Below, piece by piece: positions 2,112 to 11,631 of a stretch of 20,000 nt of DNA (position 1 is the stretch's first letter; every line of letters starts with the position of its first letter). Below the pieces are notes generated by a model. It was given only the letters and a program-made list of their open reading frames with translations. It was not told the origin of the DNA and did not search any database. Position numbers and translations under genes: made by a program. Source of the DNA: an uncultured virus (IMG/VR IMGVR_UViG_3300036770_003021) (lineage: Duplodnaviria > Heunggongvirae > Uroviricota > Caudoviricetes); the IMG/VR virus record IMGVR_UViG_3300036770_003021, positions 114,040-134,039 of that record. One strand, 5' to 3'.

Positions 2112-2123
2112 CACCTAAAAATC

Positions 2124-2158
2124 AAAAACCCGTCATTCTTTTTTTGAAGTGACGGGTT
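2124..2158 (-). terminator. Intrinsic terminator of attenuator 1
   Basis: AACCCGTCA...TGACGGGTT stem followed by T run; 5' arm overlaps antiterminator. Confidence 0.85.
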
Positions 2159-2187
2159 GGTTCTTTTAGGAGCAAACAACCTCGCCT

Positions 2188-2241
2188 TCAACTTCCGGAT
2201 GGGAGTTGACTGGCTTGACTAGGTTGTGAAATTAAATTCAT
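2188..2241 (-). CDS. Leader peptide 1, MNLISQPSQASQLPSGS (17 aa)
   Basis: ATG..TGA directly upstream of antiterminator/terminator; Ser/Gln/Pro/Gly/Leu codons match the downstream tRNAs. Confidence 0.75.
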   Translation of the reverse strand: MNLISQPSQASQLPSGS

Positions 2242-2288
2242 ATTGTTACTAATATATAGTATTCAAAATACAAAATCAACAAAATTTT

Positions 2289-5232: not shown

Positions 5233-5323
5233 TGGAGCACGATCAAGGTTACGCTCCTTGCATATGTATTTTCATACAATGATGTTTTGCAGACATCTCA
5301 GTTCTCTAGCTCTGTCATCGTGC
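5233..5323 (-). tRNA. tRNA-Cys(GCA) with long variable arm
   Basis: GATGT-CT-GCA-AA-ACATC, U discriminator + CCA; T-loop AGCGTAA. Confidence 0.8.
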
Positions 5324-5334
5324 TTTATATAAAA

Positions 5335-5409
5335 TGGTTGTCACGGTAGGACTTGCACCCACAATCTTCTGGGTCAGAACCAGCTGCGATTCTATTACGC
5401 TACGTGACA
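5335..5409 (-). tRNA. tRNA-Gln(CTG)
   Basis: CTGG-TT-CTG-AC-CCAG, CCA; T-loop TGCAAGT. Confidence 0.82.
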
Positions 5410-5411
5410 AT

Positions 5412-5486
5412 TGGAGCCTGCAATTGGTTTTGACCCAATATCTATCAATTTACGAAATTGATGCTTTACTATTAAGCTATACAGGC
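5412..5486 (-). tRNA. tRNA-Thr(CGT)
   Basis: TCAAT-TT-CGT-AA-ATTGA, GCC acceptor start, CCA; T-loop GTCAAAA. Confidence 0.85.
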
Positions 5487-5492
5487 ATTAAA

Positions 5493-6296
5493 TTATTCGT
5501 CCGCATTTGAACCAAAAATACGCTTCCAAAAACCCACTTTTTTAGGTTTTTCCTCTTGTTTTGATTCATCTACTTGATTAATTTCTTTTGATAAATTATT
5601 TGAGTGCTGATTTGAAATTTTCATCAAAACTTCCGCACCTTTTGGCCACTCACCCAATTTGTTTTTAAATTCATAACCACTTTTTTTCATATTTTGTCTC
5701 AAATTTTGAGCCAAAAGTGCATTTTCTCTCTTCAATTCCTCTATAATTTTTTCATACTCAACAATCTTGTTCTTCAAGAAATCTCTTTCTTTTGTAAGCT
5801 CTTCAATCTTAGCCACAAGCTCATTTTGATCTTTATCAGTCTTTGCAACTTTAAGCTCATCACTCAAATCTACGATCTCTTTAGTCATTTTTACAAGCGT
5901 ATTACGCAATGATTTTAAATCAGATTCAAGCGCAGATTTTTCTTGGGTCAAATCTTTAATCTTTATGTCTTTTTCATCAGATGATAATTTTAACTTCTCA
6001 GTAATATTCTGTAACTGAGTTAAATTAGTATGCAATATACTCAATTTATTGTCATAACTCTTCAATAATGAAGTCATTTCCACATTTTTTTGATTTAAAT
6101 TGGTAATCAATAAACTTTGATTTACAACAATCTCAGACTGATTAGCAACTTTTTTAGACAAAACTTTATTGTCTTTATTTAATGAACTAAATAATGCGTA
6201 TAATCCAAAAATTACCAATACAATTACAGCAATTATTGAATATAATACCTTTTTATTAGTAAACGAAAATGTTTGGGGAGAGTTTGTAGATTCCAT
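5493..6296 (-). CDS. Membrane-anchored coiled-coil protein
   Basis: N-terminal TM helix, long heptad-rich region, C-terminal GFWKRIFG amphipathic motif. Confidence 0.8.
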   Translation of the reverse strand: MESTNSPQTFSFTNKKVLYSIIAVIVLVIFGLYALFSSLNKDNKVLSKKVANQSEIVVNQSLLITNLNQKNVEMTSLLKSYDNKLSILHTNLTQLQNITEKLKLSSDEKDIKIKDLTQEKSALESDLKSLRNTLVKMTKEIVDLSDELKVAKTDKDQNELVAKIEELTKERDFLKNKIVEYEKIIEELKRENALLAQNLRQNMKKSGYEFKNKLGEWPKGAEVLMKISNQHSNNLSKEINQVDESKQEEKPKKVGFWKRIFGSNADE

Positions 6297-6349
6297 AAAT
6301 TTATTTTATTATATATATAATACCCTCACACTTAAATATATTTTTAAAA

Positions 6350-6423
6350 TGGAGCCTCCAGCAGGTACCGCCCCTGCGTTTCATCATTACCAATGATGTG
6401 TAATACTTTTATACTATGAAGGC
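6350..6423 (-). tRNA. tRNA-Thr(GGT)
   Basis: CATCA-TT-GGT-AA-TGATG, CCA; T-loop GGCGGTA. Confidence 0.88.
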
Positions 6424-6428
6424 AAAAA

Positions 6429-6506
6429 TGGCACACCCGGCAGGATTCGAACCTGCAATCTTCTCGTTAGAACCGAGTCGCTTTAGTCCAGTTTAGCTAC
6501 GAGTGC
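6429..6506 (-). tRNA. tRNA-Arg(TCT)
   Basis: CTCG-GT-TCT-AA-CGAG, canonical T-loop, GCCA. Confidence 0.92.
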
Positions 6507-6648
6507 GTTAAAATTACCCACCACTGTTCGAACAATGGTGGCACCAACACGATAGTTTGCTAATAGGCTTATTCGGTTTGTGTTCGTCGTCAACACAAAT
6601 CCCGCTATCTCTTTTACCACACGACCTGCTTCATAGAGTTGGTGAAAA

Positions 6649-6722
6649 TGGTTGACCGTGCCGGTTACGCTCCGGCGTAGGACGATTATCAGTCGTCTAT
6701 TCTGCTATTGAATTAACGGTCA
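6649..6722 (-). tRNA. tRNA-Ile(GAT)
   Basis: GACGA-CT-GAT-AA-TCGTC, ACCA; T-loop AGCGTAA. Confidence 0.88.
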
Positions 6723-6729
6723 ATTGAAA

Positions 6730-6805
6730 TGGCGAGGTATATGGGTGCTGCCCCCACTATCTTTTCCGTGACAGGGAAATGAGTCTGCTGTTCCTCTTAT
6801 ACCCC
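6730..6805 (-). tRNA. tRNA-Asp(GTC)
   Basis: TTTCC-CT-GTC-AC-GGAAA, GCCA; T-loop GGCAGCA. Confidence 0.88.
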
Positions 6806-6896
6806 AAAAAATTGGTGCTGTGCTCTCCACGCCGTCTCTGTGTTTTACCGATTGTACCGGTCGGCAGTCACTTATGGGGCCAGTTACCCATTAAAT

Positions 6897-6975
6897 TGGT
6901 GGAGCCAGTGGGTAATGCTCCCACACGAATCGTCCGGTTAAAAGCCGGCTGCCCGTCTATTGTGGCTTTGACTCC
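6897..6975 (-). tRNA. tRNA-Lys(TTT)
   Basis: CCGG-CT-TTT-AA-CCGG, ACCA; T-loop AGCATTA. Confidence 0.85.
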
Positions 6976-7069
6976 ATAAATTGGTGGGTCTTTCCCTCTG
7001 TCACTCTTTAATCCCTAGGATTTCAACCCCGGCAAATATCGGTTACGAGTTACCGCTAGACTTATAAAA

Positions 7070-7145
7070 TGGTGGAATCATCGGGATTTGAACCCGAATC
7101 ACGATATTAAGAGTATCGTAGTCTAGCCAATTGACTTATGATTCC
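7070..7145 (-). tRNA. tRNA-Lys(CTT)
   Basis: CGATA-CT-CTT-AA-TATCG, canonical T-loop, ACCA. Confidence 0.94.
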
Positions 7146-7187
7146 ATTATTAAAAATTTCTTCTTACATTGTCAACGAACTATAATC

Positions 7188-7215
7188 ATCTTACCACACT
7201 TTATAACTTCGTCAA
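7188..7215 (-). promoter_or_regulatory. Internal sigma70-type promoter in tRNA array 2
   Basis: TTGACG-16 nt (ending TGTGG)-TAAGAT. Confidence 0.65.
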
Positions 7216-7233
7216 CAGCTTTTTAAAAAAACT

Positions 7234-7983
7234 TTAAACGTTACTTTGTTTCTTTGGATATGGTTGAATTGACTTAATCAATCCACCCAATATTCTTTTA
7301 CCATCACTAGAATTTTGTCCGGATAAAATATAAATGTACATATGTTTTCCAGTAGCAGTTCTTATTTCAAATGGACTATTAGGATTGGTTCTTGCATCAT
7401 TTGCTGCATCTTTACCAGTTTCAAAACCATACTTCTTTATTTGTGGTAATCTATACACCCACTTGTTTTCTTTTTTATCCCACAAACGTTTTGTATCTTT
7501 ACTCTTGCCTAAATAAATTGCATTTGTTGCTTGATATATAGATCCAGTATGTCCCTGTCCACTATCAGCCCGTGTAATAACAACCTTTAATTCGGGATAA
7601 TCCTGTTTAATCTTTTTATTACCCAAACCAATTACATACGACGCCAAGTTGCTTAACTCAGGTATTTGTTTTGCCTCAGGTTTCAAATATAATCTCAATA
7701 ACTCAAATACTTCATTCTTTTGCAATAAACTGTTGCCCTCTGCATCTACAGCTATTTCTTCATAATCTTGTGGCTTGGTGGTTTGTCCATAAACAATCAC
7801 TCCTACCATATCCACATTACCATCTGTCTTCTTGTACATCACACCATAATTAGCAGCCACCGCCGTAGGATATGTCTTTAAATAATGCTGCTTAATAAAA
7901 TTCAATACTTCAGATTTACTCTTGGGTTCCAAATATACACTATCTTTCAAACCCTCCAATATTAATTCTTTCAATTTAATCAT
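7234..7983 (-). CDS. Mom-family (GNAT-like) DNA modification protein
   Basis: FELLRLYL...VITRADSGQGHTGSIYQATNAIYLG Mom-type motif; start moved to MIKLKE (7983) because the longer ORF overlaps tRNA-Phe and TATTTAT precedes this ATG. Confidence 0.75.
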   Translation of the reverse strand: MIKLKELILEGLKDSVYLEPKSKSEVLNFIKQHYLKTYPTAVAANYGVMYKKTDGNVDMVGVIVYGQTTKPQDYEEIAVDAEGNSLLQKNEVFELLRLYLKPEAKQIPELSNLASYVIGLGNKKIKQDYPELKVVITRADSGQGHTGSIYQATNAIYLGKSKDTKRLWDKKENKWVYRLPQIKKYGFETGKDAANDARTNPNSPFEIRTATGKHMYIYILSGQNSSDGKRILGGLIKSIQPYPKKQSNV

Positions 7984-8016
7984 ATGATATAAATATCTGC
8001 ATGCATCGTCAAAAAA

Positions 8017-8092
8017 TGGTCCCAATTGTTGGTTCCGCCCCAACCTCTCAAGTTCTTCAGACTTGCGCTTTCACTAGGTTAGCTTAACTGGG
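8017..8092 (-). tRNA. tRNA-Phe(GAA)
   Basis: CAAGT-CT-GAA-GA-ACTTG, ACCA; T-loop GGCGGAA. Confidence 0.87.
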
Positions 8093-8104
8093 ATTATAAA
8101 TCTA

Positions 8105-8185
8105 TTGACAAGTCAAAGGAATCGAACCTTTTCGGAACAGAGTCGCCCGCTCCTTTACCACGCCCTGCGCACTAGCACCTGTCAA
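8105..8185 (-). ncRNA. tRNA-like RNA with perfect T-arm, no anticodon arm
   Basis: TTGACAG/CTTGTCAA closing stem; AAAGG-TTCGATT-CCTTT T-arm. Confidence 0.5.
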
Positions 8186-8192
8186 AAACTAA

Positions 8193-8294
8193 ATTGTGTG
8201 GTTGGAATCGAACCAACGGCCCGTGCTTATTCACACTTTTACGGTGTCATTTACCATCATAGTGAGCACTGATCTACCCCTGAACTACACACAA
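8193..8294 (-). tRNA. tRNA-like gene with 37-nt expanded anticodon loop (isotype undetermined)
   Basis: Acceptor TTGTGTG/CACACAA, D-arm, GTGCT/AGCAC stem, GTTGG-TTCGATT-CCAAC; no CCA. Confidence 0.6.
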
Positions 8295-8301
8295 TCTAAA
8301 A

Positions 8302-8688
8302 TTAAATTTTGTTTTTTGTTTTTTGCCATTTTTCTACACAATATTCGTGGTATTCTTTTTTGCAAATTTCACATCTACATTTATGATTTATATAACCAGA
8401 TTTACCGTGTTTCCAAGATTCTCTATTAATTAAATAATCTTTGTTATCTAAACTTTTCTTCAAATGACACGGATAACATAATAATTGACATTTGTGTATT
8501 TCTCTTACAAAGACTTCTATATTTGTTGTAAACATAGAAGATATTTCATTCACTTTCGTTCTTGGATCTATATGGTCAAATTGTAAATCTTTTTCAGAAT
8601 TACATTTACAACATTTACCTCCAAGCATTTCAAGTCCAAGTTGTTTTCTTTTTTTTCTATAGTTTTGTATATATTCTTTTGTAGGCAT
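8302..8688 (-). CDS. HNH endonuclease
   Basis: CCKC...LQFDHIDP...KCQLLCYPCH; C-terminal HG..GY...CRCEIC motif. Confidence 0.88.
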   Translation of the reverse strand: MPTKEYIQNYRKKRKQLGLEMLGGKCCKCNSEKDLQFDHIDPRTKVNEISSMFTTNIEVFVREIHKCQLLCYPCHLKKSLDNKDYLINRESWKHGKSGYINHKCRCEICKKEYHEYCVEKWQKTKNKI

Positions 8689-8768
8689 AAATTTCTCCTA
8701 CAAATAAATATCATTGAATTAAACTAAAGTTACAAAAAGTTACAATGTTGTAATTGTTGTTAATAAAA

Positions 8769-8854
8769 TGGTGGGGTATGTAGGTAATGCTCCTACCCAG
8801 CCCGAAGGCAACGGTTTTACAGACCGTTCTGCGTCTTTATCAGTATAATACCCC
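8769..8854 (-). tRNA. tRNA-Tyr(GTA)
   Basis: ACGGT-CT-GTA-AA-ACCGT, GCC-TTCG-GGC variable arm, ACCA; T-loop AGCATTA. Confidence 0.9.
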
Positions 8855-8992
8855 AAAAAATATATAATGTATGATGAACAATGAAATTATTTAAATTTCT
8901 TAAGGCACTTTATGTTCATACTATTGCAATTTGATCAACTGCCTAACCCTCAATCAGCATACTCCATACATCATATAAAACTATTGAAAGAG

Positions 8993-9115
8993 CTCCAGAG
9001 GAGGGTTTCGAACCCCCAACCCTGCGGTTAACTTTGGCCTTGTGAGATTTGCACTCTCTATTAAATAATACTTTATGGCCCACAGCCGCATGCTCTACCA
9101 TTGAGCTACTCTGGA
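8993..9115 (-). tRNA. tRNA-Asn(GTT) interrupted by 51-nt anticodon-loop insertion
   Basis: TCCAGAGTAGCTCAATGGTAGAGCA-TGCGG-CT-[51 nt]-GTT-AA-CCGCA...TTCGAAA; no encoded CCA. Confidence 0.8.
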
Positions 9116-9123
9116 ATTGAAAA

Positions 9124-9201
9124 TGGCTCCAGCCCTTGGCTCCGCCCCAAGCTCGACACGGTTTAACAGACCGCCGGTTACACTAAGTTTCCTTGACTGG
9201 A
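9124..9201 (-). tRNA. tRNA-Asn(GTT)
   Basis: GCGGT-CT-GTT-AA-ACCGT, GCCA; T-loop GGCGGAG. Confidence 0.87.
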
Positions 9202-9392
9202 ATTAAAAATTAAATTTGAAAGTGTGGATTCTCTTACCACCACTTAGGGCGGACTGCCCAGTTCTGACTTCAACAGACTCTCTTTCAAAAAATGTTTACT
9301 GGATTTCACTATGCTTGTTCCACCTACTAACTATAACCTCGTCAGATTATAACCTTCAATGTCTATCAGTGTCAATACATTACTTACTACTT

Positions 9393-9469
9393 CAACTATT
9401 GATTCAGATTCGAACTGAATGACTACTGCATACAGCGCAGTTGCTTTACCAATTAAGCTACGTTCGTTG
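9393..9469 (-). pseudogene. Degenerate tRNA (intact D, anticodon and T arms; broken acceptor stem)
   Basis: TAGCTTAATTGGTAAAGC, ACTGC-GCTGTAT-GCAGT, TTCAG-TTCGAAT-CTGAA; acceptor strands do not pair, no CCA. Confidence 0.6.
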
Positions 9470-9492
9470 CCTTCACCTAATGTATTTAAAAA

Positions 9493-10164
9493 TTATTTAT
9501 ATACTCTACCTTTAACATATCCGTTTGTCAAGTATGTTTGTAGTTGTTCTTTTTTAATTTTAAGATTTTTATTTGTTTCAGAATGATATACCCAACAAGT
9601 TCCATATTGGGAATTTTTTGCACCGGATTGTGCTACTTTTAGTTTTTCTCCGATTTTCTTTTTTGTATCTTCTTTATGTTTTTTACCGGTCCAATGAAAA
9701 GCATTTTGTTTCCATTTTTCCTTTAAAGATGTTGATACTTTCTGTTTCCATTCTTCAAATAATCCTTTTTCAATTAAAAATTCTTTTATCTTATCTCCTG
9801 TCAACAAATTCTTTTTCCTAATCTCAATATTTTTATGATGTATATTTTTTCCAGATTCGTTTATATAAGAATAACCGCCATAACCACCTTCCATTATATT
9901 GTAAGTATTATTCGATTCAATAAATAATTGGTTTACAATTTCTCTTTCTTTGGAAAACATTTCTTCAGCGGTATCAAATATAAATAAAATTTCTTTAATA
10001 AAATTTTCTTCACCATATTTTTGTATTGCTCTTTTTAGAAGTTTTCCAGAACCCATATAATTGTCCTGCAAATTTTTTGTTTTATGCATTCCAATGTAAA
10101 TTTTTTGGTTCAATTTATTTGTAATCTTATATATCGTGTATTTATATTGAGCGTTCGTGTCCAT
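9493..10164 (-). CDS. GIY-YIG homing endonuclease (Seg-like)
   Basis: TIYKITNKLNQKIYIGMH...YMGSG; NUMOD3-like GKKHKEDTKKKIG; start reassigned to MDTNAQ (TATTTAT upstream, avoids tRNA-Trp overlap). Confidence 0.9.
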   Translation of the reverse strand: MDTNAQYKYTIYKITNKLNQKIYIGMHKTKNLQDNYMGSGKLLKRAIQKYGEENFIKEILFIFDTAEEMFSKEREIVNQLFIESNNTYNIMEGGYGGYSYINESGKNIHHKNIEIRKKNLLTGDKIKEFLIEKGLFEEWKQKVSTSLKEKWKQNAFHWTGKKHKEDTKKKIGEKLKVAQSGAKNSQYGTCWVYHSETNKNLKIKKEQLQTYLTNGYVKGRVYK

Positions 10165-10213
10165 AATAATAAATATAGACACGAACTCAAATAATATTAT
10201 TTTTTTTGAAATG

Positions 10214-10288
10214 CATCCACCGTAAGAATCGAACTTACCCACGGGCTTTTGGAGAGCCTGTCGCCTAATCCTTGGAACATTGGCGGAT
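10214..10288 (-). tRNA. tRNA-Trp(CCA)
   Basis: GGCT-CT-CCA-AA-AGCC, canonical T-loop; 3' CCA not encoded. Confidence 0.87.
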
Positions 10289-10298
10289 ATACTATAAA

Positions 10299-10375
10299 TG
10301 GCAGTCGCATTGGGATTTGAACCCTATTCTCCATCTTGAGAGGATGGTGTCCTATCACACATAGACGATGCGACC
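10299..10375 (-). tRNA. tRNA-Glu(CTC)
   Basis: CCATC-CT-CTC-AA-GATGG, GCCA. Confidence 0.92.
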
Positions 10376-10480
10376 GTTAAATATTGTGACGAGATTACCC
10401 CAGTAGGAATTACCCGGCATGCAAGGGCTCCTTCAATCTTTTGGGTTTAAGTCTCTTTGTTGCCCTCGTCACTTTTAAAA

Positions 10481-10558
10481 TGGTAGCCCCACGGGGAATT
10501 GAACCCACGATTTGTAGATTGAAAGTCTACCGTCCTATACCCATTAGACGATGAGGCC
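10481..10558 (-). tRNA. tRNA-Glu(TTC)
   Basis: GTAGA-CT-TTC-AA-TCTAC, ACCA. Confidence 0.93.
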
Positions 10559-10569
10559 ATTATATAAAT

Positions 10570-10647
10570 TGGTGCTTCAGTGAGGATTCGAACCCCAAAC
10601 TCAACGTTCGTAGCGTTGCGTGATAAATCCATTTTCACCACCGAAGC
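10570..10647 (-). tRNA. tRNA-Arg(ACG)
   Basis: CAACG-CT-ACG-AA-CGTTG, canonical T-loop, ACCA. Confidence 0.94.
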
Positions 10648-10653
10648 ATAAAT

Positions 10654-10729
10654 TGGTTACCCCACTTGGATTTTCACCAAGGTTGATGTCTCAGAGAACA
10701 CATCCGTCCTAAACCTAGACGATAGGGTA
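10654..10729 (-). tRNA. tRNA with Glu-like D-arm and 10-nt anticodon loop (isotype uncertain)
   Basis: GATGT-GTTCTCTGAG-ACATC; ATCGTCTA..GGACG D-arm; ACCA; T-loop TGAAAAT. Confidence 0.65.
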
Positions 10730-10737
10730 ATTAAAAT

Positions 10738-10813
10738 TGGGGTGAATAAGGAGATTTGCACTCCCTTTGATTGCTTCACAGGCAATGCTCTTACTACATA
10801 GAGGATATTCACC
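10738..10813 (-). tRNA. tRNA-His(GTG)
   Basis: ATTGC-CT-GTG-AA-GCAAT, G-1:C73, CCA; T-loop TGCAAAT. Confidence 0.9.
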
Positions 10814-10825
10814 ATTACTATAAGC

Positions 10826-10907
10826 TGGAGCCGTTGACAGGATTCGAACCTGCGATGATTTTCCAGTTTACAAAACTGGTGTTTTCAACCACTCAACTCA
10901 CAACGGC
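10826..10907 (-). tRNA. tRNA-Thr(TGT)
   Basis: CCAGT-TT-TGT-AA-ACTGG, canonical T-loop, CCA. Confidence 0.92.
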
Positions 10908-11101
10908 GTTAAATTTTCTTTACTTCAACATTCACAGTAATCACCTCAGTAATACTGTCATCGCCCTATGGGTTCTGTATTCCAGCATAACACCCACGGA
11001 CCAATCAATTGATTTTCCCAGACTTTACCCTATCGTCAATTTCTTGACTCACTGGAGGAGGTTCAACAGATGGAGTTTCAAACCTTCCTTACTCTTTATT
11101 C

Positions 11102-11129
11102 AGTCTATCACAGCTTTCGCCATTGTCAA
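11102..11129 (-). promoter_or_regulatory. sigma70-type promoter
   Basis: TTGACA-16 nt-TAGACT with TG extension. Confidence 0.55.
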
Positions 11130-11191
11130 CTGACTTTTAAAATTTCTTTTTCGTCATCCAATGAACTACTTACTTCGTTCACTGTTTAACT

Positions 11192-11219
11192 ACTTTACCA
11201 CACATCCAAAGAACGTCAA
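11192..11219 (-). promoter_or_regulatory. sigma70-type promoter at head of tRNA array 2
   Basis: TTGACG-16 nt (ending TGTGG)-TAAAGT. Confidence 0.65.
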
Positions 11220-11230
11220 CCCAGAAAATA

Positions 11231-11261
11231 AAAAAACCGTCACTTTTTTTCGGTGACGGTT
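11231..11261 (-). terminator. Intrinsic terminator of attenuator 2
   Basis: AACCGTCAC-loop-GTGACGGTT + T run; 5' arm overlaps antiterminator. Confidence 0.85.
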
Positions 11262-11288
11262 GATATTGTTTGGGTTTCAGATCTACAT

Positions 11289-11372
11289 TTACACAATATC
11301 AGCCGCCATACCTCTATCTTCACGATTTGTAAAGGTATTCCAACGCTTAATATTTGTATAATGTACTTTCAT
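11289..11372 (-). CDS. Leader peptide 2, MKVHYTNIKRWNTFTNREDRGMAADIV (27 aa)
   Basis: ATG..TAA whose 3' end is the antiterminator strand; codons 2-20 match anticodons of the downstream array. Confidence 0.8.
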   Translation of the reverse strand: MKVHYTNIKRWNTFTNREDRGMAADIV

Positions 11373-11631
11373 TACGTTAATATATATCAAGAAATTTACT
11401 AAACGTCAATATTTTTTTGCAAAATTCTTTATAACCTTATAACAACTATAAAAACAATACAGTGTCAAAGCACTCAAAGCACCCACTCCAAAACTCATAC
11501 CAATTGTTATAACCCAACCAATTATATTACGTTGCTCTTCGCTCAATGTAAACATATCGCACAATACATACTTGTTTTTCAATCATTAAACTTATTATAT
11601 TAAATTAAAATTATAAACAACTATTAACGCA

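Follow-up and report, generated by a model that had tools for sequence, protein, structure and literature searches.

A candidate leader-peptide attenuator ahead of a phage tRNA array, with a leader spelled largely in codons that the array's tRNAs read

The window analysed here is a stretch of 20,000 nucleotides (nt) from an uncultured virus of the Caudoviricetes (IMG/VR record IMGVR_UViG_3300036770_003021, positions 114,040 to 134,039). It carries two blocks of transfer RNA (tRNA) genes: array 2, at 10907-5233 on the minus strand, and array 1, which runs from 1935 downwards and extends beyond the start of the window. Array 2 is preceded by a compact module consisting of a promoter, a leader open reading frame (ORF) of 27 codons, alternative RNA helices and an intrinsic terminator. 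We regard the chances as evenly balanced that this module is a ribosome-mediated leader-peptide transcription attenuator that senses the supply of the array's own tRNAs. The parts of the module, their conservation in relatives, the mutually exclusive helices, a switch in the folds that depends on ribosome position, and the match between leader codons and array were all computed directly. The module is composed of the following elements:

11381..11409, minus strand: promoter P1, read from the sequence and conserved in the alignments of relatives.
11289..11372, minus strand: leader ORF of 27 codons plus TAA, MKVHYTNIKRWNTFTNREDRGMAADIV (ATG at 11372, TAA at 11291-11289).
11334..11354, minus strand: codons 7-13 of the leader (AAT ATT AAG CGT TGG AAT ACC), modelled as stall-sensitive in ribosome-masked partition-function folds.
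11330..11365, minus strand: region 1, the 5' arm of the long hairpin, including ACAAATATTA and AATACCTTTA (minimum-energy folds).
11293..11308, minus strand: region 2, TGGCGGC-TGATATTGT, whose partner is either region 1 or region 3 (folds and alignment).
11254..11269, minus strand: region 3, ACAATATCA plus ACCGTCA, of which ACCGTCA is the terminator 5' arm; nearly invariant in relatives.
11225..11261, minus strand: intrinsic terminator, composed of AACCGTCAC (11261-11253), a 9-nt loop, GTGACGGTT (11243-11235) and a T-run to 11225 (minimum-energy fold and alignment).

An earlier, sequence-only reading of this DNA had described the leader ORF and its lack of Ser, Gln, Pro and Leu codons, and both were recovered as described. 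P1 has the -35 element TTGACG (11409-11404), a 17-nt spacer and the -10 element TATATA (11386-11381), with TG before the -10 element. It was overlooked by the sigma70 consensus scan, as it has A at position 6 of the -10 element. The predicted start of transcription lies 0-1 nt ahead of the ATG, and no Shine-Dalgarno site for the leader ORF was found in the upstream sequence. This is no objection to translation, because most long ORFs of the phage also lack such a motif (15 of the 97 long ORFs in the phage record have a Shine-Dalgarno-like motif). Throughout the record, many ORF starts fall 4 bases after a TATTTATA motif, which suggests a phage-specific promoter yielding leaderless mRNAs. Near-leaderless starts thus seem to be the norm in this phage.

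The minimum-energy fold (-36.1 kcal/mol, z = -3.46; equalled by 1 of 200 shuffles) contained both structures that had been proposed from the letters, namely a long hairpin, which encloses most of the leader ORF, and the terminator AACCGTCAC/GTGACGGTT with its T-run. The terminator stem is GC-rich, comprises 9 base pairs (bp) and is followed directly by the T-run. The proposed alternative pairing GGCGGCTGATATTGT:ACAATATCAACCGTC was also found, with 9 bp, a 1x1 mismatch and a further 6 bp into the terminator 5' arm. In this pairing, GGCGGC-TGATATTGT at the 3' end of the ORF binds ACAATATCA-ACCGTC and thereby invades the terminator. The Rfam scan of the leader gave no family at gathering score; the best overlap was the trpB motif at 26.3 bits (gathering score 59, E = 2.1), and the Trp, His, Thr and Leu leader families and the T-box gave no match at E up to 5.

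To follow the effect of a ribosome on these helices, partition-function folds were computed with a ribosome-sized stretch kept single-stranded and shifted codon by codon. The probability of the terminator was 0.95 without a ribosome, 0.89-0.90 with the ribosome at codons 2-6, 0.91-0.95 from codon 14 onwards and 0.95 at the stop codon. In contrast, it fell to 0.02-0.33 when the A site was placed at codons 8-13, so that the terminator was lost only for ribosome positions in the middle of the ORF. It is lost there because the ribosome covers the 5' arm of the upper hairpin; GGCGGC is thereby freed, and the pre-formed 9-bp helix can extend into the terminator arm. The sensitive span (codons 7/8 to 12/13) was the same for five footprint models, and not one of the 120 dinucleotide-shuffled versions of ORF plus spacer switched. 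Among eight versions from relatives, six switched clearly at the same place and one switched weakly; in the eighth (L013) the antiterminator prevailed already with no ribosome. The sensitive codons 7-13 make up the conserved core of the leader together with the 5' side of the upper hairpin, and all seven of them (Asn-Ile-Lys-Arg-Trp-Asn-Thr) are read by array-2 tRNAs. The sequence-only reading had proposed an OR gate over 18 codons. This is too broad, since only a ribosome at codons 7-13 abolishes the terminator in the folds; the sensor as modelled would comprise 6-7 codons, not 18.

Protein-anchored and motif searches of viral contigs yielded 16 distinct versions of the array-2 module; the leader-2 motif search also returned five unrelated loci and one reverse-strand self-match. 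The sequence-only reading had staked itself on the conservation of the ORF and antiterminator in related phages, and the ORF, antiterminator and terminator were all retained in 16/16 versions. Each version keeps the ATG, and the frame stays open for 23-28 codons, compared with 1-2 and 3-6 stops in frames +1 and +2, and in each the stop codon lies in or beside region 2. In L021 and L188 the frame is shifted in the 3' third, with the stop still in or at the end of region 2. The conserved feature is the predicted end point of translation, not the C-terminal peptide. Further upstream lies a conserved peptide core, Y-T-x-I-K-R-W-x-T-F-T, which coincides with the hairpin arm and shows synonymous changes (CGT/CGC, AAG/AAA, ACC/ACA and ACA/ACG). 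Between the stop codon and ACAATATCA, the spacer differs freely in both sequence and length from version to version, whereas ACAATATCA itself and the terminator arm hardly change.

The helices were conserved as well. In the 16-sequence alignment, 91.3% of 240 cells in the antiterminator (region 2:3) were paired, compared with 31-59% when the pairing was slid. Two antiterminator pairs were changed on both sides, which was matched by 3 of 500 shuffles. For the terminator, 97.2% of 144 cells were paired and two pairs were changed on both sides (matched by 13 of 500 shuffles). An extension of at least 6 bp into the terminator arm was present in 16/16 versions, in one of two registers; in six sequences a single bulged base offsets the register, and the fixed-column count treats this register as unpaired. 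By inspection, a G-to-A change in the terminator arm of L013 is accompanied by changes in both partners, and an A-to-G change in region 2 of L188 is compensated in region 3 and also in region 1. In 7/16 versions, an AU pair of the upper hairpin is exchanged for CG. Without being prompted, RNAalifold returned three helices, which are the upper hairpin, TGATATTGT:ACAATATCA and the terminator. The 1:2 / 2:3 / 3:4 attenuator architecture that had been read from the letters is thus upheld by conservation, compensatory changes and the ribosome-masked folds. The module stands directly upstream of the first tRNA in 11/11 array-2 loci and in 5/5 array-1 loci.

Next, the codons of the leader were compared with the tRNAs of array 2. 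ARAGORN was run at default and lowered thresholds with introns allowed, and Rfam at permissive settings. This gave 18 accepted tRNA genes with 16 distinct anticodons:

5233..10907, minus strand: Thr tgt, His gtg, Gln ctg (unusual loop), Arg acg, Glu ttc, Glu ctc, Trp cca, Asn gtt (intron), Phe gaa (intron), Phe gaa, Lys ctt, Lys ttt, Ile gat, Arg tct, Thr ggt, Thr cgt, Gln ctg and Cys gca.

Codons 2-20 of the leader had been said to be read by these tRNAs at 18 of 19 positions, with 14 of 18 anticodons in use. The large majority was indeed read, at the lower count of 16/19, or 15/19 without the weak Lys(ttt) at 6897-6975, which was seen only at the lowered ARAGORN threshold. The number of anticodons in use was revised to 12 of the 16 distinct ones. 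The synonymous pairs held, with a separate isoacceptor gene in the array for each codon of Lys AAA+AAG, Arg CGT+AGA and Thr ACA+ACC. The count of 16/19 compares with 8.1 expected from 7,708 windows of the phage's own long ORFs (P = 0.0013) and with 10.0 in stop-free composition-matched shuffles (P = 0.005). It also compares with 4/18 and 5/18 in the other two frames. The unread codons are TAT, GAT and GTA, of which GTA is decoded by the array-1 Val(tac). No tRNA reading TAT or GAT was detected in the window genome by ARAGORN and Rfam. The equivalent arrays of relatives carry Tyr(gta) and Asp(gtc), and the fullest of them, in L029 (22 anticodons), reads 19/19 leader codons.

A paralogous module was found ahead of array 1, with the same promoter type and with a TTGACA promoter right behind the terminator:

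2116..2279, minus strand: paralogous module, consisting of a promoter (2279-2251), an ORF, a terminator and then the TTGACA promoter.
2241-2188, minus strand: array-1 leader ORF of 17 codons, MNLISQPSQASQLPSGS (ATG at 2241).
2157-2150 and 2135-2128, minus strand: arms ACCCGTCA and TGACGGGT of the array-1 module terminator, followed by a T-run; similar to the array-2 terminator.

In addition, GGCGAGGTTG in this module resembles the terminator 3' arm. The array-1 leader contains codons for Ser, Gln, Pro, Leu, Ala and Gly, and array 1 encodes Val tac, Pro tgg, Leu tag, Gly tcc, Gln ttg, Ala tgc and Gly gcc. A further two Ser genes of class II (tga and gct) were called in array 1 by hand; they fold as cloverleaves and are syntenic with Ser genes that ARAGORN called in a relative. 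Array 1 reads 9/16 codons of its leader under strict wobble, or 13/16 under extended rules in which U34 reads whole boxes, and array 2 reads 2/16. Conversely, array 2 reads 17/26 codons of leader 2, and array 1 reads 4/26. When the 25 anticodons were permuted across the arrays, the own-array total had P = 0.007 (strict) or 0.004 (extended). Own-array preference was seen in 5/5 genomes with both modules (P = 0.0008-0.048), which are related genomes and so not independent trials. The match between leader codons and downstream array, as claimed from the letters, is therefore upheld, and it is reinforced by this paralogous leader, which matches the other array.

For the array-1 modules the motif search gave many chance matches. 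Filtering left 19 distinct candidates, three of which were false, giving 16 distinct modules. The variable positions of their leaders toggle mainly among Ser, Gln, Pro, Leu, Val, Ala and Gly, which are array-1 amino acids. In ribosome-masked folds of eight array-1 variants, the switch was clear in four and weak in one, at codons 7-11 (Pro, Ser, Gln/Leu, Ala/Val, Ser).

Taken as an attenuator, the array-2 module could work as follows. P1 would start an essentially leaderless transcript that opens with the codons of the 27-codon ORF. In the absence of a ribosome, or when one reaches the stop codon, the upper hairpin would hold GGCGGC, the terminator would form and the transcript would end after ~150 nt. 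A ribosome stalled at about codons 7-13 (Asn-Ile-Lys-Arg-Trp-Asn-Thr) would cover the 5' side of the upper hairpin, and the released GGCGGC would extend the TGATATTGT:ACAATATCA helix into the terminator 5' arm. Polymerase would then read through into the tRNA genes, on top of the output of the downstream promoters. Slow decoding of those codons, with host tRNAs scarce or destroyed during infection, would yield more array tRNA, and the loop would switch off once supply is restored. The loop would respond to slow decoding of exactly these codons because the array itself encodes their tRNAs. We infer the translation of the ORF, the read-through in vivo and the physiological trigger.

The sequence-only reading had also pointed to sigma70-like promoters past the terminator, and the consensus scan found three in the window:

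11219-11192, 11129-11102 and 11039-11012, minus strand: sigma70-like promoters, all three past the terminator and ahead of the first tRNA.

Contigs from the RNA libraries of four metatranscriptome runs cover parts of this region. One spans 11018-11237, from the terminator 3' arm through the first downstream promoter, another covers 10904-11135, and a contig of a relative joins 11284-11353 to 10992-11087. Such contigs do not show transcript starts, ends or strand, DNA carry-over is possible, uncovered parts carry no information, and no conclusion was drawn from them. The segment 10930-11031 (minus strand), just upstream of tRNA-Thr, had the top depth in the contigs of two metatranscriptome runs, and some of these contigs are flanked on either side by unlike sequence. 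The segment resembles a conserved RNA element that is possibly abundant.

Several results weigh against an attenuator that senses the array's tRNAs. There are no tandem regulatory codons; the sensitive set is spread over single positions, and with a single copy of each sensitive codon a mild shortage of any one tRNA would be poorly sensed. When all codons of the ORF are counted, the match is marginal (17/26, P = 0.04-0.05 in both control sets). Leader codons had been expected to co-vary with array content, and they do not: coverage by the own array is 0.70, compared with 0.68 by the arrays of other genomes, and G002 retains Lys, His and Phe codons though no such tRNA was detected there. The bias of substitutions by codon position is weak (10/7/12). 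The covariation of the helices rests on few events; the 12-sequence set was not significant (82 and 93 of 500 shuffles as high), and the signal became clearer only once four more divergent variants were included. In L013 the antiterminator is favoured at equilibrium even without a ribosome. For array 1, the masked-fold switch was not seen in 3/8 variants, including the window's own copy, and Ser(tga) and Ser(gct) were undetected by ARAGORN and Rfam in the window. Moreover, a TTGAC promoter right behind the T-run is also present in relatives. The attenuator would only add to tRNA transcription and not be its sole gate, because this conserved promoter lies directly after the terminator, and read-through from P1 would not be the main source of array transcription.

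Some of these points are shared with an unlikely alternative, in which the module is a translation-coupled attenuator that does not sense tRNA supply. It would respond instead to general ribosome traffic, to transcription-translation coupling or to nascent-peptide arrest by the Y-T-x-I-K-R-W-x-T-F-T core, and the array match would be a by-product. The structural evidence is identical for this explanation and for tRNA sensing. The peptide core is conserved with synonymous changes, the contents of leader and array lack fine co-variation, and the regulatory codons are single, not tandem, all of which fit it. However, the two paralogous leaders have different peptides and each fits its own array only, and the variable positions of leader 1 mostly stay within the array-1 amino acids. 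As the core overlaps the hairpin arm, conservation of the peptide also needs no separate cause.

A small independent gene, encoding a micro-protein or a ~150-nt small RNA, is similarly improbable. Transcription of the array would then start solely at the promoters behind the terminator, with no regulatory function for the alternative pairing. The complete promoter-to-terminator unit, the conserved promoter immediately past the terminator and the single-stranded ACAATATCA, conserved like the seed of a small RNA, are consistent with such a gene. Trans-acting attenuator RNAs are also known (PMC6614838), and rnTrpL is one of them. Nevertheless, the C-terminal peptide is unconserved and is frame-shifted in two lineages, and region 2 stays complementary to the terminator 5' arm despite sequence change, in two registers. 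The position-dependent switch, absent from all 120 shuffles, speaks against this gene too, and the module is always attached to the tRNA array, not to the upstream gene. It also leaves the codon-array match unexplained. Finally, the module could belong to the upstream gene for a 58-codon membrane protein (11582-11406), as its 3' untranslated region and terminator, or could be a nuclease processing hairpin, with the short ORF accidental. The upstream ORF does end at 11406, within the -35 element, and long imperfect hairpins are typical sites for double-strand nucleases. We consider this very improbable. The upstream flank shows no detectable similarity to that of the window in 9/16 array-2 modules although the module is kept, which argues against the module being the 3' end of the upstream gene. 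Its own promoter is conserved, and the ORF is open in 16/16.

Attenuation by a tRNA-sensing leader, as preferred here, has its closest counterparts in multivalent enterobacterial attenuators. The thr leader contains Thr and Ile codons, and the ilvGMEDA leader contains Ile, Leu and Val codons. Like the array-2 module, both combine a short leader ORF and an intrinsic terminator with 1:2, 2:3 and 3:4 helices that exclude one another; the position of the ribosome determines the result, and more than one kind of codon is sensed. Unlike them, the array-2 module would regulate tRNA genes and not biosynthetic enzymes, and it has six or seven different codons, once each, in place of codon runs. It is also leaderless, lacks a Shine-Dalgarno site, resides in a phage and has promoters behind its terminator. 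In the trp, his, leu and pheA attenuators, a terminating ribosome covers region 2, and a stall in region 1 frees it. The switch logic is the same as that of the array-2 module, but these attenuators sense one amino acid through tandem codons, whereas the array-2 module would sense decoding by the tRNAs encoded downstream. Aminoacyl-tRNA synthetase genes are controlled by T-box riboswitches, which bind uncharged tRNA directly, and by the pheST leader (pheM). Both resemble the proposed array-2 attenuator in attenuating genes of the translation apparatus according to tRNA status. The T-box has no ORF, unlike the array-2 module, which gave no T-box match. The array-2 module also differs from pheM, which responds to Phe-tRNA alone and has a protein gene as its target.

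Phage tRNA genes are now viewed as a means of countering the loss of host tRNAs and defences that cleave tRNA. The literature search found nothing on how their expression is controlled, and its full-text part returned no account of leader-peptide attenuation of phage tRNA genes. A look-up of terms in passages of a paper on phage tRNAs (PMC11555353) gave no mention of attenuation or a leader and one unrelated 'terminator'. In mycobacteria, leaderless polycysteine short ORFs act as attenuators, according to a preprint (10.1101/834739). As described there, they resemble the array-2 leader in being leaderless 5' short ORFs that serve as ribosome-read sensors for downstream expression; they differ in organism, in sensing a single amino acid and in having protein-coding targets.

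If the array-2 module senses its own tRNAs, it would be the first attenuation system in which the sensed quantity and the regulated product are the same tRNAs. Attenuation, classic for amino-acid operons, would have been re-used to regulate tRNA supply itself, and phages may monitor decoding capacity while infecting. Such a sensor would be compact, portable and directly testable with reporters, and two leaders each spelled for its own array would offer a built-in specificity control for experiments. More tentatively, and with somewhat less than even confidence, large phages may control each tRNA block by a leaderless test peptide of its own, written in the codons that the block's tRNAs read. 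This would act as a codon-by-codon homeostat and alarm, gauging whether the infected cell is still able to decode. With host tRNAs scarce or under destruction, for example by anticodon nucleases, it would raise the output of the matching replacement tRNAs.

The window is the terminal 20 kilobases (kb) of a 134-kb viral record, the completeness of which its source estimates at about half. The phage is large and myovirus-like, with a tail sheath domain detected by Pfam. Runs containing window sequence were mainly freshwater and subsurface metagenomes. A DNA search of public phage records gave no match and a neighbouring protein gave distant matches only, so that no close deposited relative was found. 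Nearly all features of the window, including both tRNA blocks, lie on the minus strand. The Pfam scan of the neighbours and large proteins returned only HNH, GIY-YIG, Mom-like and tail sheath matches, none of which bears on the leader module. ORFs for HNH-like and GIY-YIG-like endonucleases (weak Pfam matches) are interspersed with the tRNA genes, and a Mom-family protein (Pfam, E = 1.4e-24) also lies among them; these ORFs are covered by the intervals 409-1092, 9493-10242 and 7234-8043 (minus strand).

Several tRNA genes of the window have unusual forms (all on the minus strand). The tRNA-Asn(gtt) at 8992-9115 has a 51-nt insert in the anticodon loop, and this intron form recurs in relatives. 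The tRNA-Phe(gaa) at 8192-8295 has a 30-nt insert in the same loop, and a second Phe(gaa), at 8017-8092, has no intron. A tRNA-like gene with an 8-nt anticodon loop, at 10654-10729, was read by ARAGORN either with a four-base anticodon (ctct) or as Gln(ctg) with a 3-nt intron; it was unreported by Rfam, and its form recurs in L013, L014, L020, L022 and L029. A candidate Tyr tRNA at 9394-9467 (Rfam score 34.9 bits) was rejected: TGT occupies the anticodon position, the acceptor stem pairs poorly and ARAGORN makes no call even at -ps80; this tRNA-like piece may be a decayed gene. T-loops of the GGCGGTA or GGCAGTA type, in place of TTCGAAT, were present in the tRNAs at 6350-6423, 8017-8092, 1574-1665 and 1398-1489, and standard finders miss or down-score several tRNAs because of these non-canonical loops. 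Between two Glu tRNAs, ~100 nt at 10376-10480 are closed by an 8-bp stem, GTGACGAG / CTCGTCAC, and gave no Rfam match; this segment could be a small structured RNA that is processed along with the tRNAs.

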